DNA of 64,000 nt from Patescibacteria group bacterium (GTDB taxonomy: Bacteria; Patescibacteriota; Minisyncoccia; Phycocordibacterales; Phycocordibacteraceae). Below are positions 4,446 to 59,223 of the stretch, one piece after another. Location of the stretch: positions 4,777 through 68,776 of the forward strand of contig SCTS01000006.1 in assembly GCA_004322365.1 (NCBI GenBank). The letters are read 5' to 3'. The notes below the pieces were generated by a model, which was not told the DNA's origin, did not search any database, and was given only the letters and a program-made list of their open reading frames with translations. A program made the translations under genes and the position numbers. Every line of letters starts with the position of its first letter. Within the stretch, counting starts at the first letter, position 1.

Positions 4446-5453
4446 TTATATGTTAAATAAAGGATCAATAATACCGAGTCCGGCAAGTCCTGCGAGTAGT
4501 GCGAATGCTCCAAGGCCAATCACTAGAACTCCAGCAGATTTGAAAAAGAGCGGGGCGTGCTTTGACCCTGCAAATGAAGCAGAGCCAAAGGACAAAAGCG
4601 CGAGCATCGGGAGTGTGCCAAGGGCAAATGCAGTCATTATTAGAAATCCCGAGAGAAACGAACCGCTTGAGAGCGCAGCAATCTGCATTGTTTGAGTAAA
4701 CCCACAAGGCAAGAAAAATGTACCAACACCAATCAAGAACGGGGCTATCGTCTTATGTTCCACCTTGCGGAAGAAACTGAAAAATCCCGAGGGGAGAGCA
4801 ATCATATTTTTCTCAAATACTCCTACGAGATTAAGCCCAAGCAGAATCATCACTGTTGAAGCAATTATTCCCAGTATTGCAGTGAGAGTAAAACTAATTC
4901 CGATAGCGCTACCAATGGCACCGAGCACACCACCGAGTACAGCAAAACTAATAAGCCTGCCTCCGTGGAAAAGCATCATCGGCTTTACGTCACTAACCTT
5001 GTCCTGAGAGACTGTTGCGGAAAGGGAGAGCACTAATCCTCCAACAACCGCAAGACAACTTGAAACAGAAGCGACTAGTCCGATGATAAAACTTGTCACT
5101 GGTGTCACGGTCCCACCTAAACCAAAATTTAGGATTCCTGATTTTTGCACAATGAAAAACAGTGCGAGAAACGCTAGCCCGATGGGCAATGCCAGCCAAA
5201 TGACTCCACTGTTCTTGTTTTCCTTTGCTCGCTTCTCTATAGAGAGCTGGTAGCCATTCTGTTTAATTTGCTCGGTCAAAACTTCAGCAAGCATATGCTG
5301 CGAATCATCAAGATCGGTATCAAAAGAAACTGTCTCGTGCTTGAGATCAACTTGTGTATTTTTAATACCAATGTGCTCGTTCAGTGCATCCTCAATAAAG
5401 ATTTTGCAGGAGGCGCAGTGCGTGCCGGAAACGTGTAATGTGATAGTTTTCAT
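4446..5453 (-). CDS. HMA-domain fused to a polytopic permease (DsbD_2/UreH-like family)
   Basis: N-terminal heavy-metal-associated fold with GTHCASC (MxCxxC-type) motif, then about 6 TM helices. Start chosen at MKTITLHVSG. Confidence 0.6.
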   Translation of the reverse strand: MKTITLHVSGTHCASCKIFIEDALNEHIGIKNTQVDLKHETVSFDTDLDDSQHMLAEVLTEQIKQNGYQLSIEKRAKENKNSGVIWLALPIGLAFLALFFIVQKSGILNFGLGGTVTPVTSFIIGLVASVSSCLAVVGGLVLSLSATVSQDKVSDVKPMMLFHGGRLISFAVLGGVLGAIGSAIGISFTLTAILGIIASTVMILLGLNLVGVFEKNMIALPSGFFSFFRKVEHKTIAPFLIGVGTFFLPCGFTQTMQIAALSSGSFLSGFLIMTAFALGTLPMLALLSFGSASFAGSKHAPLFFKSAGVLVIGLGAFALLAGLAGLGIIDPLFNI

Positions 5454-15336: not shown

Positions 15337-15717
15337 CTAAAACAGCAGTTGAGTTTTTTGTTGTAGCGGGAGACGCGGTGGGAGTTTTTCTTTCGCGAGA
15401 TGTGTGGAAATTAGATAGTCGTCAAAGTGTACAAAGCTTGAGTTGACGACGACAGATATGCAATAACCCAGACCACCAGTAGAATGCTGATTATCGTCAG
15501 AAACTGTTCGATTGCTTATTATCTGATGAAGTTCTGTTAGACACGGAGAATGGTTATCAGAGTCGGGTGCATGGGGCACTTTGTCCTGATGGGTCTGATC
15601 ATTTGCAAAAGCGACAGAGGGCGATAGGAGTGTATGTCCAAATGTGAAAAAGACGGCAGCAAGGAGCAACGCGACACCAAAAAGTTTTCTCTTCGAATCC
15701 TTACGCTTTGGAAACAT
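15337..15717 (-). CDS. hypothetical secreted His-rich protein
   Basis: Signal/TM segment then HQDKVPHAPDSDNHSP. First gene of the co-directional metal block. Confidence 0.35.
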   Translation of the reverse strand: MFPKRKDSKRKLFGVALLLAAVFFTFGHTLLSPSVAFANDQTHQDKVPHAPDSDNHSPCLTELHQIISNRTVSDDNQHSTGGLGYCISVVVNSSFVHFDDYLISTHLAKEKLPPRLPLQQKTQLLF

Positions 15718-17388: not shown

Positions 17389-17793
17389 TTACCTATTCAA
17401 AAATGTAATGGTTAATTGTAGAAAAGTGGCAAATATTCCCCACAGAAGATACGGGATATTGGCATACACAACCCAACGCAATTCTGGTGACGCATGCCAA
17501 ATGGCTATGAGTGCCCACACAAGCGTGCCAATGACAAGTAGGATATCAATCGATGCAAGGAGATTATTTTTGAGCCCAAACTGAATCGGCGTAAAAGCAA
17601 AGTTAAAAAAGAGATTAAGTGCAAAAGGCACAGCCACTATCCACGGATTTTGTTTAGTGAATACTTTGTAAAATACGGTTCCAAAAGTTACCGCAATAAT
17701 TGCATACAGCACCGTCCACACTAGCCCAAAGAGCCATGATGGCGGAGCCCATGTCGGCTTAATTAATTGTGAGTACCAACTGTAAGTTTCCAT
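17389..17793 (-). CDS. tspO: TspO/MBR tryptophan-rich sensory protein
   Basis: Five TM helices; W-rich N-terminus (SWYSQLIKPTWAPPSWLFGLVWTVLY) characteristic of TspO. Confidence 0.8.
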   Translation of the reverse strand: METYSWYSQLIKPTWAPPSWLFGLVWTVLYAIIAVTFGTVFYKVFTKQNPWIVAVPFALNLFFNFAFTPIQFGLKNNLLASIDILLVIGTLVWALIAIWHASPELRWVVYANIPYLLWGIFATFLQLTITFLNR

Positions 17794-17851
17794 CTATACC
17801 TCATTGTACCTCAATGACCCTCCTCGGAATCGAAACATCTATATAGACCCC

Positions 17852-19600
17852 TTACCCGAAAGTAAAAGTAAATGCTTGTAATCCAGCCCTTGGTATTACG
17901 ATACGAAGGATATGCTTTCCATACTCTGCATCTTGGATGAGTGAATAGAGAGTTTCGTCCTTAATCACCATCTTTTTGACTAATACATCATCTTTATATA
18001 TCTCAATCTCAACTCCTTTAGCTGAGCCAGCTGTCATATAGACATTTTTTGATTCATAGCTGAAGACAATACTTCCTCCGCTTTTATTTTCTGCATATTC
18101 GGGAGTCATGCTCCATGTGCCGCCAAGGTAGAGCTGATTGAAAGAGGCCTTAGAAGGAACGCTCAGCGTCTGCTCGCCAGTCTGACCAGCAGTGCCATTT
18201 GCAAGATAGTGATTACGAGATGACCCAAAATATACTTCAGGACTCTTCACCTTACTCGAGTCAACAGTTACAACCGTTGAAGGTTGTGATGTACCTGTAG
18301 ACACCGTGTCTTCCATCCCCATACGAGATGCGCGTTCTTTGAGAGCATTTTGAATTGCTTTCTCTGTTTCTTCGTACTCACCTTCACCAATATGGTCGTA
18401 AATGATATACCCATCGATATCAATAAGATATTTGCGTGGCCAGAACTGATTACCGAGCGCATTCCATGTCGAGTAATCGTTGTCGAGAACAACAGGATAT
18501 TGTATGCTAAAGCCTTTTACTGCTTTCTCAACATTGACCTGCACCTTTTCAAATGCAAATTCTGGAGTGTGAAGTCCTACTACCTCCAACCCTTGATCTT
18601 TATATTTTGTATACCACTCGTTAATGTACGGAATGGTGCGCTGACAATTGATACAGCTGTATGTCCAAATATCGAGGAGCACTACCTTTCCTCTGAGTGA
18701 TGCGAGGGTAATTGGTTTTCCCTCCGTATTAACATAGCCATCAATCGAGCTCAGTTCTGGAACCTTTTTATATTTTGCCTGTTTCTGTTCCATAGTGAGG
18801 TATCCACTCACATCCTTTTTCACAGAGCTTTCTTTCGCTGATACATCAGTTGTTCGGGCTGGAGCATTATTCTTCTCCAAAAGTTTCTGCTCTATTTTTG
18901 TGACGTCAAAAAATCCGGCATCAAGCAAAAACAGTTGAGTTTTCTTGTCGAACCCACCAATAATAGCGATGCCGACAATAAGGAAAATAACTCCAAGCGT
19001 TCGCTTAAACCATCCCTTTGGATCTGCAGCAACACCAAGTTTGTTCATTATTTTTTGACCAACAATTGACACCACCAAAAGCGAAAGACAAAGTCCTATG
19101 GTGTAGGCAAATAGGTAGAGCATCCCGAGTGCAGGGCTTACTGGGAGTACTGTGGCAAGGACAATGAAGTAAGTTGGACTACAGGTCGAGAACACGGGGC
19201 CAAGCGCACTACCTACAATGACATCGCCCCAGAAACTATTTTGTTTGTTACCTTTGCCAAGAAGAATATTAGACTTTGTGCTGAGCCTTGCAATAAACTG
19301 ACCTTCCCAAAGCGACGGGAAAAGAGTGACGAGACCGAGAAAGATGATGATGCCTCCTGAAATCCATTTCCACACATATTCCGGAATATCAATAAACAAT
19401 GTACTTGCTTTGAGTAACAGCGTGAATCCGATAACAGACACGCCGAGGGCTATGATGATAGTGAAGGCTTTCTTTTTATTGAACACTCCTACACCTCCAT
19501 TTGAAAGCGAGCCGCCAATAATGACAGGAAGCAACGGCAAGATACACGGCGCAAGCACCGTCAAAGCTCCCGCAATAAATGAGATGAGGAGGAGAATCAT
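17852..19600 (-). CDS. CcdA/DsbD-type membrane thiol-disulfide transporter fused to TlpA-like thioredoxin domain plus a C-terminal domain of unknown function
   Basis: N-terminal 6-TM region with the two conserved Cys (APC.., STCSP), periplasmic thioredoxin CxxC (WTYSCINCQ), and a further 150-aa domain of unknown function. Confidence 0.75.
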   Translation of the reverse strand: MILLLISFIAGALTVLAPCILPLLPVIIGGSLSNGGVGVFNKKKAFTIIIALGVSVIGFTLLLKASTLFIDIPEYVWKWISGGIIIFLGLVTLFPSLWEGQFIARLSTKSNILLGKGNKQNSFWGDVIVGSALGPVFSTCSPTYFIVLATVLPVSPALGMLYLFAYTIGLCLSLLVVSIVGQKIMNKLGVAADPKGWFKRTLGVIFLIVGIAIIGGFDKKTQLFLLDAGFFDVTKIEQKLLEKNNAPARTTDVSAKESSVKKDVSGYLTMEQKQAKYKKVPELSSIDGYVNTEGKPITLASLRGKVVLLDIWTYSCINCQRTIPYINEWYTKYKDQGLEVVGLHTPEFAFEKVQVNVEKAVKGFSIQYPVVLDNDYSTWNALGNQFWPRKYLIDIDGYIIYDHIGEGEYEETEKAIQNALKERASRMGMEDTVSTGTSQPSTVVTVDSSKVKSPEVYFGSSRNHYLANGTAGQTGEQTLSVPSKASFNQLYLGGTWSMTPEYAENKSGGSIVFSYESKNVYMTAGSAKGVEIEIYKDDVLVKKMVIKDETLYSLIQDAEYGKHILRIVIPRAGLQAFTFTFG

Positions 19601-19601
19601 G

Positions 19602-20132
19602 TTATTTTACTTCTGCCACGAGCGCTCCGAGAGTCGGGCTACCACTCCACTTTTTAATAAGGTTTCCGTCTTTATCAACCTGCACAAAAGTGTGCTGATA
19701 TGTCACGCCGTACTTTTGTTTAAGCGCAGTAGAGGTATCGTAGTTCACATCTAATATCGAAAGACCTGGAGGAATCTTTGAAAGATTAGCTTTAATATCG
19801 GCATCTATTGTTCTACACGTTGGACACCAGCTGGCTTGGAAAAACAACACTACATCATGGGTAGCCGAAGCTACTGCTACTTTTTCAGGTGCATATGCTT
19901 CATATGATCCCGCTTTCATCATAGTATCGCTCGTATCCATCATGCTATCGGTCTGAGTGGTGTCGGCTTTCATCATTTCTTCCCCCTCTTTCGGTGTATC
20001 TTTCATCATTGCTGAATCAGCCTTTTTAGTATCCATCATTGTGTCATCCTTACTGTTGAGGAATGCATACACCCCTCCAGCAATCACCACTAACGCTATA
20101 ACTCCGATAATAATTCCTATGTTTTTGTTCAT
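19602..20132 (-). CDS. membrane-anchored thioredoxin-like protein with Met-rich linker
   Basis: TM helix, MM-rich segment (MMDTKKADSAMMKD..EEMMKAD..SMMDTSDTMMK), WCPTC active site. Confidence 0.65.
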   Translation of the reverse strand: MNKNIGIIIGVIALVVIAGGVYAFLNSKDDTMMDTKKADSAMMKDTPKEGEEMMKADTTQTDSMMDTSDTMMKAGSYEAYAPEKVAVASATHDVVLFFQASWCPTCRTIDADIKANLSKIPPGLSILDVNYDTSTALKQKYGVTYQHTFVQVDKDGNLIKKWSGSPTLGALVAEVK

Positions 20133-20185
20133 AAAAAATAGTGATATTTATTAATTACTTCTGTACCTAGTACTATAAATAAAAG

Positions 20186-20221
20186 AAAAACAGATGTAAA
20201 GTAGACTTTACATCTGTTTTT
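20186..20221. terminator. bidirectional rho-independent terminator
   Basis: AAAAA-CAGATGTAAAG-taga-CTTTACATCTG-TTTTT. 11-bp perfect stem flanked by an A-run and a T-run. Confidence 0.7.
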
Positions 20222-20245
20222 GGGGAAAACTTACACATGTAGCCT

Positions 20246-20608
20246 CTAGAGGTTTGTATCGCTCCATGTTCGAGTACCAATCTTGACCACCACCATTGCA
20301 ATGAGAGCAATAACGAGCCATGGATCTACCGCGTGTGTATAGCCTTGAATCACTATGCCAAGGGTAAGTACGCCTGATCCTGCAAGAAATGCGTTTCTTC
20401 CAGCAAGGGCACGGTGCTGGGCATCACGCTCGTCAACCAAACTTTCTCGAAGAATGAAGCTGGCAAATATCCCGAAAAGTCCTAACGTTAGCGCCAGCAT
20501 GCCCATCACCATCATGTCTGGCATCCAGAAATGAAATGGATTAAGTAGCAAAATTGCAATTGCAATCAAAGCTACGGTAACAATGATTTCTTTAAGATTA
20601 TTTTTCAT
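20246..20608 (-). CDS. small polytopic membrane protein, cotranscribed partner of the XRE regulator
   Basis: 4 TM helices; overlaps the XRE gene by 11 nt. Confidence 0.4.
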   Translation of the reverse strand: MKNNLKEIIVTVALIAIAILLLNPFHFWMPDMMVMGMLALTLGLFGIFASFILRESLVDERDAQHRALAGRNAFLAGSGVLTLGIVIQGYTHAVDPWLVIALIAMVVVKIGTRTWSDTNL

Positions 20609-20810
20609 AGGATATTTTAAATATTTTCTCGACAGGTATCTTAAAGAAACCGGCGATTTTTAAAGCGAGTAAAATAGATGGCGTGTAGTTCCCTTTTTCC
20701 AAGGCAATGATAGTTTGTCGACTAACATTCACTTTGGAAGCAAGATCCTCCTGCGTCATACCCATCTCCGCTCTGTATGTACTTACCTCATTTTTTATCT
20801 TTTCCTCCAT
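20598..20810 (-). CDS. XRE-family HTH transcriptional regulator
   Basis: 70 aa; MTQEDLASKVNVSRQTIIALEKG is a canonical XRE HTH. Confidence 0.75.
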   Translation of the reverse strand: MEEKIKNEVSTYRAEMGMTQEDLASKVNVSRQTIIALEKGNYTPSILLALKIAGFFKIPVEKIFKISYEK

Positions 20811-20843
20811 ATGTAATGATAATTCAATTGTACCTATCAGCCT

Positions 20844-20873
20844 ATGCTATGTAAAGAGGACTTTACATAGCAT
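20844..20873. promoter_or_regulatory. perfect 13-bp-arm palindrome ATGCTATGTAAAG-agga-CTTTACATAGCAT upstream of the XRE gene; putative operator
   Basis: Read from sequence. Shares the TGTAAAG..CTTTACA core with the terminator stem at 20191-20216. Confidence 0.55.
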
Positions 20874-21168
20874 GACTGACCGCAATAATCATATCGAGGT
20901 TATACATCTCGACTGAACGAACCACAGCTCTTTTGCCTTCAGTTTGAACTAGTTCCAATTTGGAACTAGTTGCTGTTTTGATAAGCTCTTTCTCCTTGTA
21001 GATATTTTGAATATGCTTTGAGATCGCCTGCGGATTAACTCCGAACATTTTAGCCATCTGCATACGGTTTGCCCAAATAGTCTCGCGCACTGAATCCCCA
21101 CGAAGCTCAATGGCACCGTTCTTTGCTTGATACACAACTACGTTATTTTTTACTTGCTTATTTTTCAT
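20863..21168 (-). pseudogene. RhuM-family protein, N-terminal about 100 aa only (truncated)
   Basis: ETIWANRMQMAKMFG..AISKHIQNIYKEKEL..YNLDMIIAV matches the RhuM N-terminal region. Full-length family members are about 330 aa; the remainder is absent. Confidence 0.55.
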
Positions 21169-21256
21169 ACTTTAAAAAATTATACCACATCTAGGCGAAC
21201 GTTCGTTCGCCTTGGTGTGGATATTCCTGTCCCATCTATTTCGAGTAGCGATTCGA

Positions 21257-22264
21257 TCACCACTCTTGCTGTACATCAGAGAATTCTTCCTGCTTCAAAA
21301 GATAGTTTAAGCCACCCACGATAGCGGCGATCTGAGCATTGACGCAGATTTCATCGGTAACCCTAGGGCTATCGGGATACACTTCTGTGGTCGTGGTATA
21401 TACGGCGTCTGAAAAGCCAGCGCACAACTTGGACTCTTTGAAATCATAGTTAACCACTCCTTCTTGCTCGAGCGGAGTTCCGATAATGTTGCCATTTTCA
21501 TCAGCTTGAGCGATGTGGGTTACCTCTCTAACCGACTCGATGATAGCTTTCTGAAAATCCGCCTGCGGATTCTTGGTATCGCCGACAGCGTAAAATCCGT
21601 CGGGGATCTCCGACCACTCCTCGGCTTTTCCATCCCGCTCGCCTTTCGCTGGTCGGAAAACGGTGTTGTCGGTGTCGGTCGTCTCGTGAAGATCAAAATG
21701 TGCAAAGGGCTTGATGTCCTTCATCGCACGCAAGAAAAGCTGGCACTCCTCAACCGGACTCCCATCACGGAACGAACGATTCGGATCGAACGCCTGTGCA
21801 TTCCAACGATTAATCGTCTCGTAAGCCCAGGGACTAACACAAGGCACGCACACAAAATTAAACTTGCCGTCAAACTGTCCAGCCGCGCGTTCCAGAAATC
21901 CGAGCGCGCCTTGAACACCGCTGGTTTCATAACCGTGTACGCCACCAGTGATTAAAATCGTTTTTTTGTCGGGAGAAAAATTTGGAGATTTTAGAAGATA
22001 GAGCGGGTAACGCTTTGGATCCTGCGAGAGCGCTCCGTATTGCTGAACTTCGAATCTGCCCCTCAGCTCTAAGACTCTGCCAACAACTTCTTCGTTATAA
22101 GAGCGCTTAGGTGTTTGCTCTCGAGACCAGCGGTCGACATCCGTCTTCGTCCACTTCCAATCTTCCATTCCGGTCAGGCTGACTTTGGAGCGGGTTTCCT
22201 TAGACAATTCGGCTGCCATAGTTCTTCTACCGTACAATTTAGATACTCTCTTGTCAAACTCCAC
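21257..22264 (-). CDS. M14-family zinc carboxypeptidase-like protein
   Basis: HGYE (HxxE) and downstream DLHE His motifs. The DNA is locally GC-rich (about 50%) relative to its neighbours. Confidence 0.5.
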   Translation of the reverse strand: MEFDKRVSKLYGRRTMAAELSKETRSKVSLTGMEDWKWTKTDVDRWSREQTPKRSYNEEVVGRVLELRGRFEVQQYGALSQDPKRYPLYLLKSPNFSPDKKTILITGGVHGYETSGVQGALGFLERAAGQFDGKFNFVCVPCVSPWAYETINRWNAQAFDPNRSFRDGSPVEECQLFLRAMKDIKPFAHFDLHETTDTDNTVFRPAKGERDGKAEEWSEIPDGFYAVGDTKNPQADFQKAIIESVREVTHIAQADENGNIIGTPLEQEGVVNYDFKESKLCAGFSDAVYTTTTEVYPDSPRVTDEICVNAQIAAIVGGLNYLLKQEEFSDVQQEW

Positions 22265-22314
22265 TTCATTTGAATCCGTAAGAAATCCTTACAAGTTGCC
22301 CTTCACCTCACTAC

Positions 22315-23820
22315 TCAACTAACCATGTCTCGGAGGTGCTTCCAAATTTGGTACATAGCGTAGGTATCAAGGGCGCAGTATGTTCTCAGGTCTTTGGCAA
22401 TCTTCGCCCGCTCTTGTTCTGTAATAGTTGGAGAAATCATTTGCCACCACGCATCTGATGCCGCACCACCTTCAGAAATATCTAAGTCAGCGTGGCGAAC
22501 TCCTTCCACAAGCGCAGGGAGTACTTTCTTAATAGAAGTCTTTCCACGAAAATCGGGATGCACATAATACTGCTTTTGAAATACATCTCGAAGATCGTAC
22601 ATCTGTGTATTTATACGCTCCAAAGCAATACGCTCATCAGGTTGCCTGAGAGCTAGTTCCCTATTCACTCCCTGCTCAAAGCTCTTATTCCACGAAATTA
22701 CACTACCCTCCGGAAGAATATGTTCCGCCAACATTTCAGCTACTTTCTCGGAAGGGTCAGAGCACTCTTCGTGAAGATACTCCACATGTCGAACTTCACC
22801 GGCAGGAGTATCCAAAATATGAAGTGAAAATTGAAACGGAATTCGCTTGTATGGGCTGTAGCCCGTAAACATAGGTATGGCTGGGGCAAAAGTTTCGTAG
22901 TCCAAAAAGTAGAGAGGAAATATGAGTGCCTCTATCTCCGCGCGAATAGCATCAAGGTCAATAATAGGTTTCTGATTTCTATACACGAGGAGCTGATTCA
23001 ATTGAATATCACTCAAATCTACATCCGCAGGAACATCATCCAAACTAAACACTTCTCGCTCCACCAGCGTTGCTAGTTTCTTCTTACTACTGCCAATCCG
23101 TGCCAAGTCGTGAATAGAATATTCAGGAACCTGCGGATTAGAATGTTTGAATGTTGAGCAATGAGCGCTCCGTCCTGAAAAGATACAGTCACATCCTTTC
23201 ATGGGCTCTTCTGTTTGTGTCAGGTGATATTTGGCCGCCTCCATCTGCTCTTCAACCTGAGGCATGCGTGCAATAACCTTCTCGGTCATATCTTCTACTC
23301 TAAACAACTCCTCCGGAACAAGGTCACCCATGCGTACATATTCTTTATTAAGGTGAATGATGAAAAATTTTCCTGTCTGAACTTTTGCGCGCTTCAAAAC
23401 AGATGCTTGAAAAGTAAGGTCGTCTATATGATCACGAGTCTTCCCCTCCTCCTTAATTGAGTTTGTGCCTTTTATTTCATACAGATCGAAGCACGCATTC
23501 TTTTTGTCGTACGCAAGCGCATCGTTTTTTGCAATAAACCCGTCAACAACAAATGTTGCTTGAAATATCGCAGGTATTTCTGCAAGCATAAACCGCTCTG
23601 TTTCTCGTACCGCTTCATCTCCGGTTTCAGTAACGAGCACACCTCCAGGGAAAAGATTTCGGGCATACGCTTCAACTTCATTTCCCTGCTCAGCTAATTG
23701 AAGTTCAAACGCTGAAAGTGAAAAAAGCTTCATAAGCTCAGGCCTATGAAGCTTGAGCCAGATGTTCTTTGGACACATCAGGAATTCGAGGAAAGTTGTT
23801 TTGGAGATGAGGGTGGACAC
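22315..23820 (-). CDS. DUF2779-type nuclease (Cas4/RecB-like PD-(D/E)xK region with Cys cluster plus C-terminal DxE exonuclease-like region)
   Basis: DLYEIKGT (E-x-K), CDCIFSGRSAHC cluster, YFLDYETF motif. 501 aa. Confidence 0.5.
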   Translation of the reverse strand: MSTLISKTTFLEFLMCPKNIWLKLHRPELMKLFSLSAFELQLAEQGNEVEAYARNLFPGGVLVTETGDEAVRETERFMLAEIPAIFQATFVVDGFIAKNDALAYDKKNACFDLYEIKGTNSIKEEGKTRDHIDDLTFQASVLKRAKVQTGKFFIIHLNKEYVRMGDLVPEELFRVEDMTEKVIARMPQVEEQMEAAKYHLTQTEEPMKGCDCIFSGRSAHCSTFKHSNPQVPEYSIHDLARIGSSKKKLATLVEREVFSLDDVPADVDLSDIQLNQLLVYRNQKPIIDLDAIRAEIEALIFPLYFLDYETFAPAIPMFTGYSPYKRIPFQFSLHILDTPAGEVRHVEYLHEECSDPSEKVAEMLAEHILPEGSVISWNKSFEQGVNRELALRQPDERIALERINTQMYDLRDVFQKQYYVHPDFRGKTSIKKVLPALVEGVRHADLDISEGGAASDAWWQMISPTITEQERAKIAKDLRTYCALDTYAMYQIWKHLRDMVS

Positions 23821-23846
23821 GAGATGTACCCAATACTATATAGTGT

Positions 23847-24602
23847 TTATGGAAGTTTCTGAAACACAAACAAATGCTCGTGCATTATCAATAAGAAATT
23901 CGCCTCTTTAGATTTAGTAACCCAAAATCCAGTGGCTTTGCAGTTAAACTGCCTCTTTATAATGTCTTCCTTTAAAACAAAACCGACTTTCAAAAATCTA
24001 TCCATCACCTTAAATGCAAGGGGTTGATACATTTTATTTCTGCGTGTATCTCCCATCAAAATGGCACAAAATTTTCCTGGCTTTAAAACCCTATAAAGCT
24101 CCTGTGCGACTTTCTCAATTTCATCAACAAAAGCATCTATATTATGTATCCCTGACAAATCCTCTTCTATTTTCCCCTCACTATATTTAATAATGTCTGC
24201 GTATGGAGGATGAGTTAAAACAAAATCAATTTCATTATCTTTAATAAAACTCATATCCCTCGCATCACATTTCACTACTCGCTGTTTTGCCTTATTATCA
24301 ACTTCAAATTCGAGAGATTTTTTCGTTCTCTCCAATGCCACCTCATTTACATCAATGCAAGTAATATGGCGATTTAATATCTTTGCTTCAATTGCTGTCG
24401 TACCCCCACCGATCATGCAATCGAGTAAATGATCCTTTTCTTTTGAATACCGCAAAATAAGGTTGCGAACAACCTCGGGTGCCCAATTACCTCGCCAATC
24501 TGACTTATGTGTTGCCCAATTACCTCTCCGTGGAAATGCCCAGACCGTGGTACATTCCAGTTCAAAATCGTCGGGATGAAGTTTGAAATCTTTTGTAGGC
24601 AT
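23847..24602 (-). CDS. DNA methyltransferase, N6-adenine/N4-cytosine class (second methylase of R-M cassette)
   Basis: AdoMet motif LLDCMIGGGTTAIEA, acidic motif II, HPPY catalytic motif. Confidence 0.65.
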   Translation of the reverse strand: MPTKDFKLHPDDFELECTTVWAFPRRGNWATHKSDWRGNWAPEVVRNLILRYSKEKDHLLDCMIGGGTTAIEAKILNRHITCIDVNEVALERTKKSLEFEVDNKAKQRVVKCDARDMSFIKDNEIDFVLTHPPYADIIKYSEGKIEEDLSGIHNIDAFVDEIEKVAQELYRVLKPGKFCAILMGDTRRNKMYQPLAFKVMDRFLKVGFVLKEDIIKRQFNCKATGFWVTKSKEANFLLIMHEHLFVFQKLP

Positions 24603-25411
24603 TATTTTACTTGTAGAATATATTTTTTACTTTTAGATACACTCATCCCGATACTAGATTCTGAGGTATCCTCAATCAAATCATAAGCCCAATACTCAAC
24701 ACCTATTTTATTTGTCACTGCCAATAAAACTAACGAATGCACTTTTTTATTCTGTAGCAATTTTTTCCACTTAAGCATCGGGAGTAAAGCCTGATTAACA
24801 TCAAATTTCGTTTGAGTAAACGAACTCTTCATTTCTACAATTACAACAGTCTCTGGCCACTCAAAACCTCCATCTATTTCAATTTGTGCTTTAGTCATAT
24901 CAACGCTCTTACCACCAACAATAAGATGAATATCTGCTTTTTGACGACCTCCTGTAAACAACACTCCATTTTCACTTAAACTATAAAAATCAGAAATGAT
25001 ACCAGCATGGTTTGCGATCGCCAAAAGAGTGGTCTCCCCAGGGTTTGAGTTTAAAGCCAGCGTTTCCTTGATTCCCGCAAGCATCCCTTCAGTTAATTCA
25101 TTTTTTATCTTAAAAATTCCACCAACTGTCGGCTCTTGAAAATCAATACCCGGTGGACTTTTAACAATTTTCCATGAACTACGACTTATGGGAATTTTCA
25201 CTATCCCTCTTTTCTGAACAGCATTCACATGTTTTGAACTTGAATGAAATATACGGATTTCTCCTTGCCCTGATTTCGTATATTTTGATAAAATAGGTTC
25301 TAAATCCGATTTATCATATTCAACAACATCAACACCTTTCGGTCTTTTGTCCCATTTTTTCTTTAAAAGAATCTCCCAAGCCTCCTCTTTCCATGAATCC
25401 TTCTTGGGCAT
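24602..25411 (-). CDS. putative Type II restriction endonuclease (middle gene of M1-R-M2 cassette)
   Basis: Assigned by its position between the two methylases, as in mboA-mboB-mboC. Possible PD..(E)xK region VVIVEMKSS. No direct family recognition. Confidence 0.4.
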   Translation of the reverse strand: MPKKDSWKEEAWEILLKKKWDKRPKGVDVVEYDKSDLEPILSKYTKSGQGEIRIFHSSSKHVNAVQKRGIVKIPISRSSWKIVKSPPGIDFQEPTVGGIFKIKNELTEGMLAGIKETLALNSNPGETTLLAIANHAGIISDFYSLSENGVLFTGGRQKADIHLIVGGKSVDMTKAQIEIDGGFEWPETVVIVEMKSSFTQTKFDVNQALLPMLKWKKLLQNKKVHSLVLLAVTNKIGVEYWAYDLIEDTSESSIGMSVSKSKKYILQVK

Positions 25412-25416
25412 AAATA

Positions 25417-26400
25417 TTAATAATTCGTTACCAAAACCTCATTGATTTTTCCTCTTTTCGAGGCATCTGAATTGATCATTCTTCCTGCTTTTATTTTGTG
25501 AATATTTATTTTTCTATCCTTAATTTCTGTATAGATTTTGTTTATGAAGGGAGTGTCAGAATTTGAAAGCATCACAAAACACCCACGCTTATGCAATTCT
25601 AAAAAAGTATCGCGAAGTTCAATTTGTTCTTTTTCTAAAAACTCTTCTGCAGTGTACGCAGTAAACGAAGCGGTTTTGCTAACTGGGTAATAAGGGGGGT
25701 CAAGGTAGATGAAGTCACCTTTTTGGGCGTATCGAAGAACCTTCTTGTAATCAGCAACCTTTATTTCCGTGTGTTGAAGTGTCTCTGACACTTTACGCAA
25801 ATTTTCTACATCACAAATGAGAGGATTAGAGTGCCTTCCAAAAGGTATATTGAACTTTCCACTTTTATTCACGCGATACATGCCGTTAAAACCTGCACGA
25901 TTCAAAAAGATAAAACGAGAAGCTACTTCCACGTCTGACAAAGAAACTGGATCCTGTGCACGCACTTTGTAATAATATTTTTCTTCGTACCGATGTTTTT
26001 TTAGAGACTTTATGAGCGATCCAACATCATCACGAATCACTTTATATGTGGTAACAAGTTCAGCGTTGCTATCAGAAAGGTAGGCCTTCTCTGGCTCAAG
26101 ATCAAAAAAAACTGCACCGCCTCCAACAAATGGTTCGAAATATCTATGTCGCACAGGATCAAACCCATCGGGAGGATAAAGCCCCAACTCCTTAAATTGT
26201 TTTAGTAGTTGTCTTTTACCGCCAACCCACTTTATAAAGGGCTTTGCCTTATGAGCGATTGCATGCGATGGCCCTAGAGGGAGCTTTCCTGTGACGTTTT
26301 TTACCGCAAGAACATGGGCATAGATACGATTGATGCCAAATTCAGCCTGATAGACCTTAGCAGCCTTTTTTATTACGGCGTCGTTTGTTACAGCGCTCAT
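25417..26400 (-). CDS. Dam-family (D12 class) N6-adenine DNA methyltransferase
   Basis: KWVGGKRQLL AdoMet motif and DPPY catalytic motif. 327 aa. Confidence 0.8.
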   Translation of the reverse strand: MSAVTNDAVIKKAAKVYQAEFGINRIYAHVLAVKNVTGKLPLGPSHAIAHKAKPFIKWVGGKRQLLKQFKELGLYPPDGFDPVRHRYFEPFVGGGAVFFDLEPEKAYLSDSNAELVTTYKVIRDDVGSLIKSLKKHRYEEKYYYKVRAQDPVSLSDVEVASRFIFLNRAGFNGMYRVNKSGKFNIPFGRHSNPLICDVENLRKVSETLQHTEIKVADYKKVLRYAQKGDFIYLDPPYYPVSKTASFTAYTAEEFLEKEQIELRDTFLELHKRGCFVMLSNSDTPFINKIYTEIKDRKINIHKIKAGRMINSDASKRGKINEVLVTNY

Positions 26401-26479
26401 AGAAGTTAATTATTAACCATATTGTAACATCCCATTTATTGGTGCGACTGCGCTAGGAACTTGGTACGAAGTTGGAACC

Positions 26480-27052
26480 TTATTGAGTAAAGCCTTCCGG
26501 TAATTCCATGTCAGAAGGTAGGCCCATTTGAGCTAAAGGGTTTTTAGTAAGATTAACTTCAGAAAAATGAGCGTTGCCTGAAAGGAACTCCTGCTGGAGT
26601 TTATCGGGCATGTATATTTTATTTGAGGGGGATTTTATGTTGTGCAGGTATATATTTCTCAAATTGAAGGTGAGTTCATCGACTGAGTTGATAATTTCTT
26701 GGCAATTGGAATTTGCTCCCGCTTCTCCGTATCGGTGAATCAAATAACCTTCCGACAATTGTTTTAAGAATTCAACCTTGTGCGGATCACCAAGGATTGT
26801 AGAAAAGTAGGGGTCTCTACTTTTGTACTTTATCAAAAGTTTAATTAAGTCGTGTCCTCGCTCTTTTTCGTAATTTAGTCTGAGTATAGCTTTGACGTAC
26901 AATTCGATTGCTTGATGGGCATTTGAACAGCCCACCGACACCCAACCATACGAGAGAGCGCGGCGTGCACTTATATAAAATGCGTCGGCGTTAGAAAATA
27001 AAAAAATAAAATCTAAGGCCCCATTTTTAATTAGTTCAAAAGGTTTATCCAT
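26480..27052 (-). CDS. HEPN-like helical protein
   Basis: All-helical; R-x4-H motif (RNIYLH) near the C-terminal region, consistent with HEPN. No closer family call is possible. Confidence 0.35.
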   Translation of the reverse strand: MDKPFELIKNGALDFIFLFSNADAFYISARRALSYGWVSVGCSNAHQAIELYVKAILRLNYEKERGHDLIKLLIKYKSRDPYFSTILGDPHKVEFLKQLSEGYLIHRYGEAGANSNCQEIINSVDELTFNLRNIYLHNIKSPSNKIYMPDKLQQEFLSGNAHFSEVNLTKNPLAQMGLPSDMELPEGFTQ

Positions 27053-27150
27053 AATTTGCTGGGAAATAGGGATTCGGATAATTTTCAGTCAAGCCCCATA
27101 AGGTTTTTAGCCGGTTTTTTGACTCAGACTCAAGCTCTTCGGAATGGAGA

Positions 27151-28038
27151 TCATGCCTTTAAATTTGCCTGAATTTCTCCAATAAGATCGTATATATAAT
27201 CGACCGGTAGTGCTACGGAATAACCCGAGTTTTGTAAATTTGTATTATATAACTCTGGAAATCGAACGTTCCTCCATTGATCAACAAAGGGAACGAACTG
27301 AACAACTACCCCAATGAGATGGATGTCTCCATTTCCTAACCCTGTTGCGTTCATTTCTAATACAAGCCCCCCGCTATTTCCACCATACACAGGACAGTCA
27401 AGAATCAAGGATTTATTTATATTATTTTTCCCAGCGATTATTCCTTTTCTAACCAAAGGGGAATCGTAATCTATCTGATTCATTTCGGGCGTACTGAGTG
27501 ACACTGGGTAGCCAAGGATAAATATATCGTTAGTGATTACCACGTCGTCGAATCGCCTGGACCCTGTCATATCATAATGTACAATCATTCCTTCGGATTT
27601 TTGAATGATTTGTATAGTTTCAAGAAAATCGATATTGCCATCTTCACTTCTCACTTCTGCCAATTTAATAACAACAATGTCTCCGCTCGCATGTGCTTTT
27701 AAATCATTTGAATCTGAGAGTGCTTCTATATTGAGCTCGAACATCTGTGGTTTGGTAGATACCTTTCCCGAAACTACAGGATAAGCAATCATCTTCATTT
27801 TCTTATCAAGTAGATTAAAAGCCTTAGTGACTTGATCTTGCTGATAGAGAACATGCTTTGCTGTCACCAAATATAACTGGTTACCATGTCTAATAATAAA
27901 ACCCGAGCCTGAACTGCCACCGACTAAAAGCTTTACTGGGTAGCTCAAGTTATCTGTAGGTAATTTCATATCAAGTTTTTTATACTTCTTGGACTTCAAA
28001 CCTATCGCAAGTTTGCTAGAAAACAGGGATTCGGTCAC
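27151..28038 (-). CDS. cytoplasmic trypsin-like (S1 family) serine peptidase
   Basis: Catalytic triad regions TAKHV (His), GDIVVIKL (Asp), GNSGGLV (Ser). No signal peptide. GTG start. Confidence 0.7.
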   Translation of the reverse strand: MTESLFSSKLAIGLKSKKYKKLDMKLPTDNLSYPVKLLVGGSSGSGFIIRHGNQLYLVTAKHVLYQQDQVTKAFNLLDKKMKMIAYPVVSGKVSTKPQMFELNIEALSDSNDLKAHASGDIVVIKLAEVRSEDGNIDFLETIQIIQKSEGMIVHYDMTGSRRFDDVVITNDIFILGYPVSLSTPEMNQIDYDSPLVRKGIIAGKNNINKSLILDCPVYGGNSGGLVLEMNATGLGNGDIHLIGVVVQFVPFVDQWRNVRFPELYNTNLQNSGYSVALPVDYIYDLIGEIQANLKA

Positions 28039-28202
28039 CCGTCACTAAGTATTTTACTCCTCAAATTCGTAAAATACTAAGTGCGCTCAATCTCGTTCTA
28101 TTTTTTTACCCCAATTAGCTTCTTGTGTTGCTATCCGCAACATCCGCGAAGTGAATTCGAGCTTTTTTGTAATGGATCGCTTCGCTCGCAAAAAACTCTA
28201 AT

Positions 28203-28245
28203 TCAAGGCTTCAAAGGCCTCTGTCCTACTGTCTAGCGAATGAGG
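28203..28245. repeat. partial degenerate copy of tRNA-Gln (D-arm to anticodon region)
   Basis: 25 nt identical to 28307-28331 of the intact tRNA-Gln, then decays. Confidence 0.55.
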
Positions 28246-28277
28246 GGAATGAAAAAGTGTTCAATTCGTGTGCACTG

Positions 28278-28348
28278 CTGGGGAACAGGGATTCGAACCC
28301 CAATTAAAGGCTTCAAAGGCCTCTGTCCTACCATTAGACGATTCCCCA
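28278..28348 (-). tRNA. tRNA-Gln (anticodon TTG)
   Basis: Manual cloverleaf: acceptor TGGGGAA/TTCCCCA, anticodon loop CTTTGAA, T-loop TTCGAAT, discriminator G. Confidence 0.8.
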
Positions 28349-28420
28349 GCGGTGAACGCGAATACTAAGATTTAAAAGAACACTTTTTCATTTCCGAGGG
28401 AGCGCTGACAGAAAGCTTTG

Positions 28421-28441
28421 CTTACCATTAGACGATTCCCC
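28421..28441. repeat. 19-nt exact copy of the 5' end of tRNA-Gln
   Basis: ACCATTAGACGATTCCCCA is identical to 28330-28348. Confidence 0.5.
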
Positions 28442-28505
28442 ATTACCTAACTTCTAGCTTACAGGTGACAGCTTATAGGTTTTAGCTTTAAACTTCAACC
28501 TTTAT

Positions 28506-31074: not shown

Positions 31075-31098
31075 ACTGTATATCCAAGGTACCACGCA

Positions 31099-31656
31099 CT
31101 ATTCCTTTGACTCTTTCGTTAGACTCTCCAAGTACCCCCTATAGATTGTTTCCGCGACTTCCTTAGTGTGCCCCTCATGATTAACGACAGAAAGTTCAAA
31201 TGTCTCCTTACTCTCGCCCATTCTTTCTATCTCCTCTTCACTCTCCCTCATTCTCTCTGGTCTACTCTTCAAGCGTTCCCGTAATATTTCTAGAGAAGGT
31301 GGGTATACATACACTATATAGAGTTGACCGGGAAATATTTTTTTTACTACATCAAGTCGAGAAATAGGAAAATCAAGAACAGGAAAATTACCAGAATCAA
31401 AAGCATCTACTATAGGTTCATATGGTGTACCGTAGCTAATCCCATACAATTCATTAACTATAACGAATTTACCTGCATCTTCTAATTCTTTAAAAGTCTC
31501 CTTGTCCACACTTACCTTCTCATCCTCTCCTTCCCGCAACGGGCGAGTCATAAAAGGAGAAATGTATACGAAGCGAGGGTCTAATTTTTTCAATTCATTT
31601 ATTATGGTGCTTTTCCCAACCCCCGATGCACCAAGTAGAAGCAAGAATTTACTCAT
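31099..31656 (-). CDS. guanylate-kinase-like P-loop nucleoside-monophosphate kinase
   Basis: GASGVGKST Walker A, TRPLREGE (compare Gmk TRxPRxGE), ..YGISYGTP. Divergent. Confidence 0.5.
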   Translation of the reverse strand: MSKFLLLLGASGVGKSTIINELKKLDPRFVYISPFMTRPLREGEDEKVSVDKETFKELEDAGKFVIVNELYGISYGTPYEPIVDAFDSGNFPVLDFPISRLDVVKKIFPGQLYIVYVYPPSLEILRERLKSRPERMRESEEEIERMGESKETFELSVVNHEGHTKEVAETIYRGYLESLTKESKE

Positions 31657-32488
31657 TTCGAAATTTATTAACCTCATCTTTCATTCGATTCAATTCAACA
31701 GCAACATTATCGCGCCAATTTTTATCTTCTGTGCTATACGGATACAGAATTTTTCGAGATGAATTAATGAATACACCTCTTTTTTTACTGTCTAAAAAAT
31801 CAGTAATGTTCGTTGCATCCCCACCCTGTGCGCCGTATCCAGCTAACAAAATAGGTATATCGTCCGGGATACTAGAGCGTGGGCTTGTAGAATACTCCGC
31901 AAGCGAAGAAAGCACCGGGATAAGATTCTGAGCAGTATTCCATTCATTCACAGTTAAATCGAGTACATGTTCCCACATTTTTCTCCCGTCGAGCGCTGGT
32001 AAATCTTGAACGGAACTATCATTACTTGTCTTTACAAGAACAATGCCTGCTTTCTCGGGCCGATTTCTCACAATGTTTAAAACGTCTTCTCCCATATATG
32101 GGTTCAAGACAACTCCGTCAGCATCCAACTCATCAAAAATAAGTGACCCGTATGCTTCCATCGTATTATCAATGTCGCCAATTTTACAATCTACAAAAAC
32201 AGGTATGTCAGAATACTTTAGGTGTATATATTGAATAATATTTTTTAAAAGTGAGTGCCCCTGTGGATACAAATCAAAAAATGCTTTCTGAATTTTATAC
32301 GAGCACACACCTTCGCCTGTAATGTCGACAATGGTTGTCAAAAAACTATAGATTTTCTCTTCGCGATTTTCGATAGCAGAATCACGTGTGTATTCCTCTG
32401 GCATTTTTGACCAATCAGGGTCAAGACCTACACAAATAAGCGAATCGTTCTTCACCATTGCTCTGTCAAGCTTTTCAAGAGTACTCAT
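31649..32488 (-). CDS. pyrF: orotidine-5'-phosphate decarboxylase (long type 2 form)
   Basis: LICVGLDPD and FVDCKIGDIDNTM (K-x-x-D-I-x-x-T) motifs. Confidence 0.8.
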   Translation of the reverse strand: MSTLEKLDRAMVKNDSLICVGLDPDWSKMPEEYTRDSAIENREEKIYSFLTTIVDITGEGVCSYKIQKAFFDLYPQGHSLLKNIIQYIHLKYSDIPVFVDCKIGDIDNTMEAYGSLIFDELDADGVVLNPYMGEDVLNIVRNRPEKAGIVLVKTSNDSSVQDLPALDGRKMWEHVLDLTVNEWNTAQNLIPVLSSLAEYSTSPRSSIPDDIPILLAGYGAQGGDATNITDFLDSKKRGVFINSSRKILYPYSTEDKNWRDNVAVELNRMKDEVNKFRNE

Positions 32489-33204
32489 ACAAGATTGAGA
32501 TGTCCTAATTTGTCTTGCTTGGCACGCAAATGTGGCTCCGTAAGCTCGGTAGGCTGAATAACCACTGGCATTACCTCATGAATCGTATAACCGTTCTCAG
32601 CAAAAACTTGCATTTTCTTTGGGTTATTTGTAGCCAACTCAATCTTCGTTGATGTTGGTATATTGAAAAATTTCAAAATTGCAATTACACCACGGTAACT
32701 TCTAACATCTATTTCGCCATGAGTTAAAGAATGTGCGGCATCAACGGTATCTAAGCCGAGATCGTGCTGCAGTAATAATGTAGCAAGTTTAAATGCCAAA
32801 CCTTTACCGCGTCCATCTTGCTGAGGTATGTGTACAATCATACCCTCTCCCTTTGCCTGTATATCTTCCATTGTTTTGTGAAGCTGATCTTTGCAGTCAC
32901 ATGTTCTATCCCCAAAAACCTGACCAGTCTCACAGCCGGAGTCTATACGAATCGTTAATAAGTCTCTATTTCTAAAAACAGGAGAAAGAGATTGATCTAA
33001 TTCTGCATTAATAAGCACAGAATATTTCTGCCACTTATCACTTACTCTAAATAAAAACTGATGAAACATACCCTCCTCAGGCTTAATTATGCCCACCCCC
33101 TCTCTTTTGACTGTAATGTTGTGCACTTTACCAGCCTCAGTAACAGACACACGCCTCTTGATTGGGCGCATGCTTAATTTTGCTCTTTCAAGTGATTCAC
33201 TCAT
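32485..33204 (-). CDS. GTP cyclohydrolase II (RibA)-like enzyme
   Basis: Zinc motif C-x2-G-x8-C-x-C (SGCETGQVFGDRTCDCKDQL) with RibA spacing. Embedded in the pyrimidine cluster. Confidence 0.6.
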   Translation of the reverse strand: MSESLERAKLSMRPIKRRVSVTEAGKVHNITVKREGVGIIKPEEGMFHQFLFRVSDKWQKYSVLINAELDQSLSPVFRNRDLLTIRIDSGCETGQVFGDRTCDCKDQLHKTMEDIQAKGEGMIVHIPQQDGRGKGLAFKLATLLLQHDLGLDTVDAAHSLTHGEIDVRSYRGVIAILKFFNIPTSTKIELATNNPKKMQVFAENGYTIHEVMPVVIQPTELTEPHLRAKQDKLGHLNLV

Positions 33205-33533
33205 GATATATGGTTCTTTTTTGAAAATCGTCCTCGAATAAGGCGATATGCCAATCTGTCGTCTATATGTCGCATAGGTAGCCCAATAATGGAATCGCAA
33301 GAAATACAAGAAAAATTTGGCATATCTCGCTGGTCGACTATATCAGCGTCATATTGAAGGTTGGCATATGTATCGGGCCAAAAAATACGATTTAAGTAGC
33401 AACGGAACAAACTACCGCTACCGTCTTTTTGATAAACAAGCGTCTTTTCTTGACATGCAGTGCAAGACAATTCAATAAATTTTCCAAAACCCTCCCTAGC
33501 TCTGAAATACTTATCTTTTTTTAATTCGAAGCT
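33201..33533 (-). CDS. zinc-ribbon-like protein, paralog 2
   Basis: CTAC..CISC pairs; conserved blocks shared with 30751-31074. Start at MSFELKKDKYF. Confidence 0.4.
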   Translation of the reverse strand, partial: SFELKKDKYFRAREGFGKFIELSCTACQEKTLVYQKDGSGSLFRCYLNRIFWPDTYANLQYDADIVDQRDMPNFSCISCDSIIGLPMRHIDDRLAYRLIRGRFSKKNHIS

Positions 33534-33666
33534 CATTTTGTTTGAATGTAATATTCTGCTCTTTTTTTGAATACTGTCAAGTCTCACCAATTCCACACTA
33601 TCTTGGCGCTTTAATAACGATTCGTTTAAACAGAGCAAGATGGGAGGTGATGGTAGAATATCTGGA

Positions 33667-59220: not shown

Positions 59221-59223
59221 AAA

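Follow-up and report, generated by a model that had tools for sequence, protein, structure and literature searches.

At the centre of this analysis are a tRNA-Gln(UUG) gene and the DNA on its 3' side, within a 64,000-nt window of contig SCTS01000006.1 (positions 4,777 to 68,776 of the forward strand; assembly GCA_004322365.1, Patescibacteria group bacterium). Beyond the tRNA lie genes for a trypsin-like protease, a HEPN protein, a type II restriction-modification (R-M) cassette, a DUF2779 nuclease-like protein, an M14 peptidase and a RhuM remnant, followed by an XRE gene and a terminator (Table 1). A sequence-only reading of the window had described 20186-28500 as an accessory island anchored at tRNA-Gln and littered with the debris of repeated integrations and excisions, an interpretation that is partly supported here. 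The block forms the variable centre of a gene-exchange hotspot with conserved flanks in a small Paceibacteria genome (candidate phyla radiation, CPR). The hotspot lies between tRNA-Gln(UUG) and a flank comprising the XRE gene, a 120-aa protein, thioredoxin (Trx) and DsbD, and the live tRNA-Gln is nested in the tip of a hairpin-repeat element within an older tRNA-Gln gene.

tRNA identification relied on ARAGORN and Rfam, and gene assignments on Pfam, PADLOC and NCBIfam. A dnaX scan of a genome collection returned 80 loci, all from Paceibacteria, Parcubacteria or Patescibacteria metagenome-assembled genomes, with the closest dnaX relatives at 98%, 96% and 95% protein identity; contigs carrying both flanks were found via homologues of the window's DsbD. 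The related-locus set comprises 136 loci (labelled L002 and so on), 1.69 Mb in all, reaching about 10 kb from tRNA-Gln. The order dnaX then tRNA-Gln is widely kept among these relatives, and the DNA after the tRNA is not. An exact-protein look-up with two flanking proteins gave as its sole match a 1.5-kb Logan contig of the same strain.

An older tRNA-Gln gene interrupted by three inserts

The tRNA-Gln at the island edge, first read as 28278-28348, was placed by ARAGORN and Rfam at 28277-28348 on the minus strand. Its k-mers were compared with the whole window against a background of 100 Markov shuffles. Four matches lie nearby, all on the strand of the live tRNA; matches of at least 15 nt were absent from all 100 shuffles, and matches of at least 12 nt averaged 0.41 per window. 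Read along the tRNA strand, the fragments (28442→28423, 28226→28205, 28117→28108 and 28034→28015) follow the order of the tRNA itself. Excision of the three inserts between them (196, 87 and 73 nt) restores a 72-nt tRNA that matches the live gene at 68 of 72 positions and has three mismatches in its acceptor 3' strand. The four fragments are colinear parts of a single older gene cut by three small structured inserts. Chance origin is ruled out because the shuffles lack such matches and because the old tRNA is rebuilt in order.

The fragments seen in the sequence-only reading are thus genuine; they are not scattered debris of serial integration and excision, being instead ordered pieces of one old tRNA-Gln. 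What had been taken for a 25-nt decayed copy of the D/anticodon region is an exact 25-mer (28205-28229) that covers old-gene positions 21-42 (28205-28226) and extends to 28229. The exact copy of the tRNA 5' end measures 20 nt at 28423-28442 rather than 19 nt at 28421-28441. Both T-arm matches fall within 19-nt copies of the tRNA tail recovered by mismatch-tolerant search: the 12-nt match at 28022-28033 sits in a copy at 28015-28033 with three mismatches, and the 10-mer at 27068-27077, exact to the tRNA over 9 nt, lies at the tail copy 27058-27076.

Since the exact 25-nt match reaches 28229, GTA is present on both sides of insert 1. Alignments of four relatives (L002, L003, L004 and L007) with the window extend from dnaX to 28423, precisely at the head-fragment edge, and the intact tRNA of these relatives sits where the window has that fragment. 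Among 111 tRNA-Gln genes, head copies occur upstream in 42 and downstream in none, and tail copies downstream in 18 and upstream in none. A head fragment upstream of the live tRNA cannot have been made by integration at the tRNA 3' end. In most contigs the outer tRNA copy is without an acceptor 3' strand or its anticodon arm is broken, and compensatory changes distinguish outer from inner tRNAs in L081, L083 and L012.

Insert 1 holds the live tRNA between its two arms. The inverted repeat that had been noticed around the tRNA is real and forms the stem of the insert-1 hairpin; the equivalent stem covaries in short-form elements and likewise in L012, L015 and L089. The acceptor stem of the live tRNA is extended, as in 18 of 103 distinct tRNA-Gln genes versus 0 of 36 other tRNAs, and the extension changes in sequence between loci with its pairing retained. 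The 222-nt nested region folds at -78.4 kcal/mol (z = -4.95).

The insert-1 junction, GGTA followed by AGCARAGCTT, recurs in relatives and in metagenomes. A query made of tRNA positions 8-20 and the first 7 nt of the insert returned 50 metagenome contigs, of which about 43 are genuine, a frequency biased by a query pattern that itself enforces the junction; their acceptor stems differ by lineage. Three forms occur at this junction. In form 1, an insert of about 73 nt is followed by the remainder of a decaying outer tRNA and then by an intact tRNA. Form 2 is the nested arrangement of the window, found also in at least nine other contigs, among them L009, L012, L015, L083, L089, L109, L112 and L127. 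The short form 3 runs from a head fragment through AGCAAAGCTTGG to the reverse complement of the local D arm, and was found at a tRNA-Lys and at another tRNA as well. Form 3 appears in L093 as two tandem units at two different tRNAs (478-600 and 13355-13460) and in L094 at a tRNA-Lys (5347-5410), so that the D-loop event is not limited to tRNA-Gln.

The short insert folds into an 11-nt leader and a rod-like hairpin. In a subfamily alignment with a hand-set structure, nine natural copies of this hairpin element have 92% of positions paired and compensatory changes at 12 of 21 pairs; 0 of 500 shuffles reached this score, and shifted-pairing controls gave 31-54%. RNAalifold returned no structure for the hairpin element from a plain MAFFT alignment. 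A covariance model built from the natural copies matches the window at 28346-28422, where the single copy is split, and finds full-length matches at non-tRNA intergenic sites in L004, L008 (two), L009, L012, L019, L101, L132 and L133. Full-length copies at such sites indicate that the hairpin element is a dispersed 73-nt family resembling repetitive extragenic palindromes (REP) or miniature inverted-repeat transposable elements (MITE). The flanking duplication is GTA or TA at the tRNA site, and repeats of 7-11 nt flank some other copies. A search for IS200-type TnpA with an IS608 TnpA query found none in the window or the 136 loci. One further copy, in L019 (12932-13001), adjoins a tRNA-Met, the first 5-7 nt of which form the 3' strand of the basal stem; the basal stem may thus pair with target sequence.

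Insert 2, which contains GCGAGCGAAGCGATCC, is 99% identical to L003 12297-12404 and 93% identical to L008 11424-11524, while the genes near it are merely 73-88% identical across the window, L003 and L008. It has either spread recently or is under strong constraint. Insert 3 together with the old tail equals the 3' half of what we call element A, a unit of about 190 nt directly after tRNA-Gln in close relatives. Element A comprises a terminator hairpin, a copy of the tRNA tail in inverted orientation, a three-way junction with a covarying second stem (GAC/GTC, AGC/GCT, GCC/GGC, GGC/GCC), a hairpin, and GTGAC followed by an exact repeat of the 19 nt that end the tRNA. Rfam searches at permissive thresholds of the window, L003, L012 and 13 other loci matched the tRNA alone, leaving element A and the inserts unmatched.

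Several known element types were considered for these structures and rejected. Two scans of viral contigs for element A as a phage attP gave one chance coding match and nothing else. The inverted tail copy of element A does not fit a primer-binding site: the TGG complementary to CCA is missing, and the complementarity tracks the genomic flank. A T-box-style glutamine codon (CAA/CAG) in the insert leader was dismissed, as the tRNA-Lys copy has GTA there and the query pattern had forced a purine. Integron attC sites, IS200/IS605 ends and bulge-helix-bulge introns misfit in crossover position, hairpin number and bulge geometry, judged from sequence anatomy only.

Tail-bounded cassettes between conserved flanks

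Deeper in the window, two further copies of the terminal 19 nt of the tRNA close single-gene cassettes, those of the protease and the M14 peptidase. The copy at 27058-27076 has a chance expectation of about 7e-4 per window by our own estimate and shares its context, AATTATC, with a copy in L007 (14463-14481). A third, partial copy follows the M14 stop codon and had been overlooked in the sequence-only reading; a full copy stands at the equivalent place in L007 (15579-15597). The S1 protease gene of the window is bounded by the tail copies at 28015 and 27058, and the M14 gene of L007 by those at 14463-14481 and 15579-15597. Tail copies also delimit blocks of 3-4.5 kb in L004, L007 and L089. The deeper copies have the GTGAC context of insert 3, not the context of the live tRNA.

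As a side observation, the tRNA-Gln tail of several genomes leads into a conserved trailer, (C)AGYTTGAGATAGGTT..GTCC, about 25 nt long, whichever gene comes next (window 28014-27985; L003 12497-; L004 15772-; L016 11167-).

The far boundary of the hotspot differs from the one first drawn. The terminator at 20186-20221 is present, with a 16-bp stem, yet it does not mark the left edge of the island: the terminator, like the XRE and 120-aa genes, is syntenic with Trx-DsbD and 88-90% identical in L133 and L136, and all three are therefore conserved flank. Window 17394-20892 aligns with L133 at 87.7%, and 20034-20867 with L136 at 89.9%. Both flanks are present in L133 and L134, the first being dnaX, p209, tRNA-Gln and a short structured element, the second the XRE gene, the 120-aa gene, Trx, DsbD and TspO; between them lie a 202-aa open reading frame (ORF), an ECF sigma factor, a 248-aa ORF and a Fic fragment. 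The variable segment thus spans 20893-28014 (7.1 kb), where L133 has 2.8 kb of unrelated genes. Among the relatives no site proved truly empty, that of L133 being filled with other cargo.

The cargo beside tRNA-Gln is accessory, as had been proposed, and differs in every relative. Pfam scans of the 9 kb after the tRNA identify DUF4238, a Bsp6I restriction enzyme, a LexA-S24-C5 methylase fusion, DUF2779 and RhuM-Fic in L002; HigB, an M78 peptidase, Beta protein, a MazG-like protein, an SLFN helicase-S24 fusion and an HNH nuclease in L003; DUF2726 and DUF4145 in L004; and a D12 methylase and M14 in L007. Most of this cargo is of R-M, toxin-antitoxin or defence type. Across all loci, 487 ORFs 3' of tRNA-Gln fall into 421 clusters. 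Two fusions in this cargo are unusual: in L002 16685-18262 a LexA DNA-binding domain is fused to an S24 peptidase and a C5 cytosine methylase, and in L003 17526-19802 a Schlafen-type helicase to an S24 peptidase.

In the window, the defence content comprises a type II R-M system with two methylases, the RhuM (PDC-S05) remnant, HEPN and the Cas4-like DUF2779. Pfam, PADLOC and NCBIfam uphold the earlier gene calls, with the correction that the supposed XRE pair is one XRE gene and a 120-aa protein with a weak, sub-threshold Pfam match at most. No homologue of the S1 protease, HEPN, Dam or restriction gene occurs in the 136 loci, and the N4/N6 methylase has one weak partial match there (32% identity). 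M14 recurs in L007 and L011 and DUF2779 is semi-conserved, so these two genes are not strain-specific. The RhuM-Fic gene is whole in L002, and the Fic end alone is left in L133. Neither uniform composition nor conservation of the whole block was found: GC content is patchy, and 20893-28014 varies among relatives. This patchiness is real and modest. Gene-wise GC outside the block is 0.436 ± 0.030; M14 lies high, the N4/N6 methylase and the restriction gene lie low, and all other genes stay within 2 standard deviations.

Table 1. Coordinates of features in the window; tRNA positions are those of the 72-nt tRNA-Gln.
Feature	Position	Strand	Details
Older tRNA-Gln head, tRNA positions 1-20	28423-28442	-	exact 20-nt match
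Insert 1, 196 nt	28227-28422	-	left arm 28349-28422 and right arm 28227-28276, split by live tRNA
Insert-1 hairpin stem, 5' strand	28378-28394	-	read from sequence; pairs with 28247-28262
Acceptor-stem extension of live tRNA, 5' strand	28349-28357	-	9 bp; 7/9 pairs with 28268-28276
Live tRNA-Gln, anticodon UUG	28277-28348	-	inside insert 1; ARAGORN; Rfam tRNA model 61.5 bits
Acceptor-stem extension of live tRNA, 3' strand	28268-28276	-	
Insert-1 hairpin stem, 3' strand	28247-28262	-	sequence reading and fold
Older tRNA-Gln positions 21-42	28205-28226	-	inside exact 25-mer 28205-28229
Insert 2, 87 nt	28118-28204	-	clean, between tRNA positions 42 and 43; from rebuild
Older tRNA-Gln positions 43-52	28108-28117	-	10-nt match, missed in the earlier reading
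Insert 3, 73 nt	28035-28107	-	in T loop; hairpin and GGGTGA, 3' half of element A
Older tRNA-Gln tail, positions 53-72	28015-28034	-	4 mismatches; cargo starts past it
Trypsin-like (S1) protease ORF	27151-28038	-	Pfam Trypsin_2; PADLOC PDC-S45 weak; ATG start probably 27969
Second downstream tail copy, 19 nt	27058-27076	-	2 mismatches; mismatch-tolerant search
HEPN protein	26480-27052	-	Pfam/PADLOC/NCBIfam; part of strain-specific AT-rich cargo 23847-27052
Dam methylase	25417-26400	-	Pfam/PADLOC/NCBIfam; GC 0.393, z = -1.4
DUF6997 type II restriction enzyme	24602-25411	-	GC 0.357, z = -2.6
N4/N6 methylase	23847-24602	-	GC 0.373, z = -2.1
DUF2779 nuclease-like (Cas4-like) gene	22315-23820	-	95% protein identity in L002 and L136
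M14/AstE-like peptidase, GC-rich	21257-22264	-	GC 0.498, z = +2.0
Third tail-copy remnant, CGAATCGCT	21247-21255	-	right after M14 stop codon
RhuM-Fic gene, N-terminal remnant (RhuM, PDC-S05)	20863-21168	-	Pfam, PADLOC
XRE gene, 120-aa gene and terminator	20186-20892	-	conserved flank, continuous with Trx-DsbD-TspO
tRNA-Trp	59542-59614	-	long hairpin next
GIY-YIG ORF, 77 aa	59224-59457		between tRNA-Trp hairpin and tRNA-Trp tail copy
tRNA-Trp tail copy, 19 nt	59163-59181		1 mismatch

Recombinases and GIY-YIG nucleases

Recombinases were sought by phmmer and hmmsearch with XerD, Cre, lambda Int and gamma-delta resolvase, plus a small tyrosine-recombinase hidden Markov model. These few queries recovered neither a tyrosine nor a serine recombinase from the window or the 136 loci, the sole match being in an unrelated viral contig (L082). 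Pfam scans of the island genes and of the L002, L003, L004 and L007 cargo likewise revealed no integrase. The earlier statement that no integrase remains in the window holds in that none is detectable there; its loss is a strained explanation, as none was found in the related loci, which reach about 10 kb from tRNA-Gln.

Only one nuclease recurs, a GIY-YIG protein of 77-95 aa. It is UPF0213-like (PDB 1zg2 at E = 4.5e-6), the closest solved structures being UPF0213 domains. Sixteen strong ORF matches were found, 11 of them at most 300 nt from a tRNA and 15 on the strand of that tRNA. In L022, L045, L055 and L081 a tRNA-Gln head fragment is followed by the GIY-YIG ORF and then by an intact tRNA-Gln, whose acceptor stem is extended in three of the four (L022, L045 and L081). 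The inner tRNA of L081 is followed by the 3' part of the outer one, which differs from it by compensatory changes. The distribution of these ORFs is sporadic and incongruent with the host: GIY-YIG versus dnaX identity is 70% versus 55% for L081-L045, and 44% versus 74% for L081-L055.

Other structures accompany these ORFs. GC-rich perfect hairpins of 17-40 nt lie in the D stem or D loop of the head fragments upstream of GIY-YIG (L022 11040-11090 and 11470-11515; L055 11075-11115; L081 15275-15340; L045 6140-6180), and in L081 an identical GC-rich hairpin stands on either side of the cassette. Between tRNA-Gln and the GIY-YIG ORF of L025 (11110-11330) are tandem repeats of about 95 nt with hammerhead-ribozyme-like CTGATGAG...CGAA cores, for which Rfam gave no match.

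Elsewhere in the window, the tRNA-Trp gene is followed by a GIY-YIG ORF and a copy of its own tail (Table 1). From its sequence, 59163-59614 looks like a single-gene nuclease cassette bounded by a tRNA-Trp tail.

Proposed routes of insertion and relation to known systems

We consider it probable that the locus as a whole is a tRNA-anchored exchange hotspot shaped by polar, tRNA-restoring insertions and served by an enzyme acting in trans. DNA would arrive repeatedly and in polar fashion, inside the tRNA gene or at its end, and would supply the displaced tRNA part or a whole tRNA, with the displaced piece staying alongside; since arrivals would replace what they displace, the cell would retain a working tRNA-Gln. 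Defence cargo would build up and turn over 3' of the old tRNA gene. Since the 1.69 Mb of related loci yielded no recombinase, the enzyme would presumably act in trans. The leading candidate for it, put forward tentatively and by analogy, is break repair or homing set off by the small UPF0213-type GIY-YIG nucleases adjoining tRNA genes. The next candidate, and the main rival to GIY-YIG, is a trans-acting integrase.

A bolder and rather doubtful extension is that Paceibacteria tRNA genes are colonised by integrase-less, selfish "cleave and rescue" cassettes, each pairing a GIY-YIG nuclease with a replacement tRNA-Gln that has an extended acceptor stem. Such a cassette would enter the resident tRNA-Gln and leave a decaying shell that gathers hairpin repeats, and nuclease breaks would turn the tRNA 3' flank into a hotspot of defence-gene gain and loss. 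The tRNA-Gln of the window would then be a nuclease-less end state, and its tRNA-Trp a nuclease-bearing cassette.

Several points weigh against a hotspot of tRNA-restoring insertions driven in trans, and against its nuclease route in particular. The tail repeat spans the T loop to the 3' end, the classic footprint of a tyrosine integrase, and the recombinase searches, made with a few query sequences, cover loci rather than whole genomes. No GIY-YIG ORF lies at the tRNA-Gln locus of the window, so any link of that locus to these nucleases is by analogy with other contigs. The GIY-YIG proteins comprise nothing beyond the catalytic domain and are not known to act on any particular target, and a cut in tRNA-Gln would endanger the live copy too. 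The old and live tRNA-Gln of the window are nearly identical, an imported live copy being seen solely in L081, L083 and L012, and the metagenome contigs were selected by the very junction they display.

The sequence-only reading had implied that tyrosine-integrase elements entered the tRNA-Gln 3' end serially and left att repeats, their integrase genes being deleted later. We regard this as unlikely. It would account for a 19-nt repeat from the T loop to the tRNA 3' end, the canonical tRNA sublocation for integrases (Williams 2002, as cited in PMC9897764), for tail copies that bound cassettes in the window, L004, L007 and L089, and for cargo that is defence-type and partly AT-rich; the PYG1 island of Pyrococcus yayanosii, inserted at tRNA-Gln, is likewise flanked by partial and complete tRNA-Gln, with tRNA fragments left by integration (PMC9897764). 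Against it stand the recombinase searches of the window, the 136 loci and the four cargo regions, units bounded by repeats that comprise just 190 nt or one gene, and a nearest tail copy that is the tail of the old tRNA gene and not an att scar. Upstream head fragments and a nested tRNA are impossible by 3'-end integration.

Site-specific mobility might be dispensed with altogether if an ancestral tandem duplication of tRNA-Gln had left one copy to decay and gather dispersed hairpins, the cargo differences arising by deletion and by illegitimate or homologous recombination after DNA uptake. The hairpin element is indeed dispersed and occurs at non-tRNA sites, the old and live tRNAs of the window have almost the same sequence, the arrangement occupies one locus throughout the clade, and direct repeats would ease loss of the inserts in L002-L007. 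We nevertheless judge this explanation improbable, given the strict polarity of head and tail copies, the same D-loop junction at tRNA-Lys and another tRNA with tandem units, the compensatory differences between inner and outer tRNAs in L081, L083 and L012, the incongruence of GIY-YIG with dnaX identities, and the insert-3 rather than live-tRNA context of the deeper tail copies. That the three inserts are introns or processing elements, and that the split old gene functions after their removal at the RNA level, is hardly credible. The inserts do lie in the D loop, variable region and T loop and are structured and covarying, and introns are known in Patescibacteria tRNA genes (PMC13011429). Rfam gave no intron or ribozyme match, however; the inserts are shorter than group I introns need, the old tail has three acceptor-strand mismatches, outer copies mostly lack the acceptor 3' strand or have a broken anticodon arm, and the live tRNA renders the old gene dispensable.

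The locus behaves as a tRNA-anchored island and as a defence hotspot; the integrase expected of a tRNA-anchored island was not found. As in such islands, accessory DNA adjoins a tRNA, direct repeats of the tRNA 3' part bound the cargo, and the cargo varies. In contrast to them, the window and related loci lack an integrase, the units range down to one gene or about 190 nt, and the window has upstream head fragments and a complete tRNA nested in an older one. Genomic islands with R-M systems have been reported from Patescibacteria in a paper in which the word tRNA does not occur (PMC12455944). With defence hotspots the locus shares conserved flanks (dnaX-p209-tRNA and XRE-Trx-DsbD) around a variable middle rich in R-M, toxin-antitoxin and nuclease genes. 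Unlike the islands of that report, the present hotspot is tied to a specific tRNA gene and has repeat-bounded cassettes.

Free-standing GIY-YIG homing endonucleases include SegB, in a tRNA gene cluster of phage T4 (PMC2988022, PMC13096335). Like the T4 Seg enzymes, the CPR proteins are encoded by small GIY-YIG genes beside tRNAs that are patchy, incongruent with the host and linked to duplication of tRNA loci. They differ from Seg and I-TevI in comprising 77-95 aa of UPF0213-like catalytic domain without a DNA-binding domain, and in being cellular rather than phage-borne. Again unlike Seg, in at least three contigs the CPR GIY-YIG gene is accompanied by a whole replacement tRNA with an extended acceptor stem, and the CPR proteins are not known to have cleavage activity.

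REP, MITE and Correia-type sequences are dispersed hairpin repeats. The hairpin element resembles them in its length of about 73 nt, its imperfect hairpin with compensatory changes, its many intergenic copies and, at the tRNA site, a TA or GTA duplicated at the junction. It differs in its fixed D-loop target in tRNA genes, its 11-nt unpaired leader, its CG ladder with pyrimidine mismatches and its capacity to carry a complete tRNA gene in its tip; a cognate transposase was not found. Split or intron-bearing tRNA genes are present in archaea. Group I introns interrupt tRNA genes of Patescibacteria (PMC13011429). These cases share with the window structured inserts in tRNA-gene loops of organisms with reduced genomes. 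In contrast, the inserts described here measure 73-196 nt, lack group I or bulge-helix-bulge features and lie in the D loop, variable region and T loop, and the interrupted copy is decaying with an intact copy beside or inside it.

As far as Rfam 15 and the searchable literature extend, the architecture appears to be undescribed: a tRNA in a hairpin repeat in an older tRNA, cassettes bounded by tRNA tails, and GIY-YIG genes beside tRNAs. Genomes of CPR bacteria are very small and contain few recognised mobile elements. Here a hotspot of defence genes is tied to one particular tRNA gene, and no integrase was detected. If the nuclease link is true, it would constitute a new route of gene flow in CPR bacteria and a natural analogue of cleave-and-rescue drives. 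Island predictors based on integrases, as well as tRNA annotation, will overlook or misread such loci.

Apart from the hotspot, the relatives differ by a second indel, beside dnaX. At window 31099-33646, gmk, pyrF and one more ORF are missing at the syntenic spot in L002-L005 and L133, whose alignments skip from about 30585 or 31098 to 33644; all three are retained in L008.

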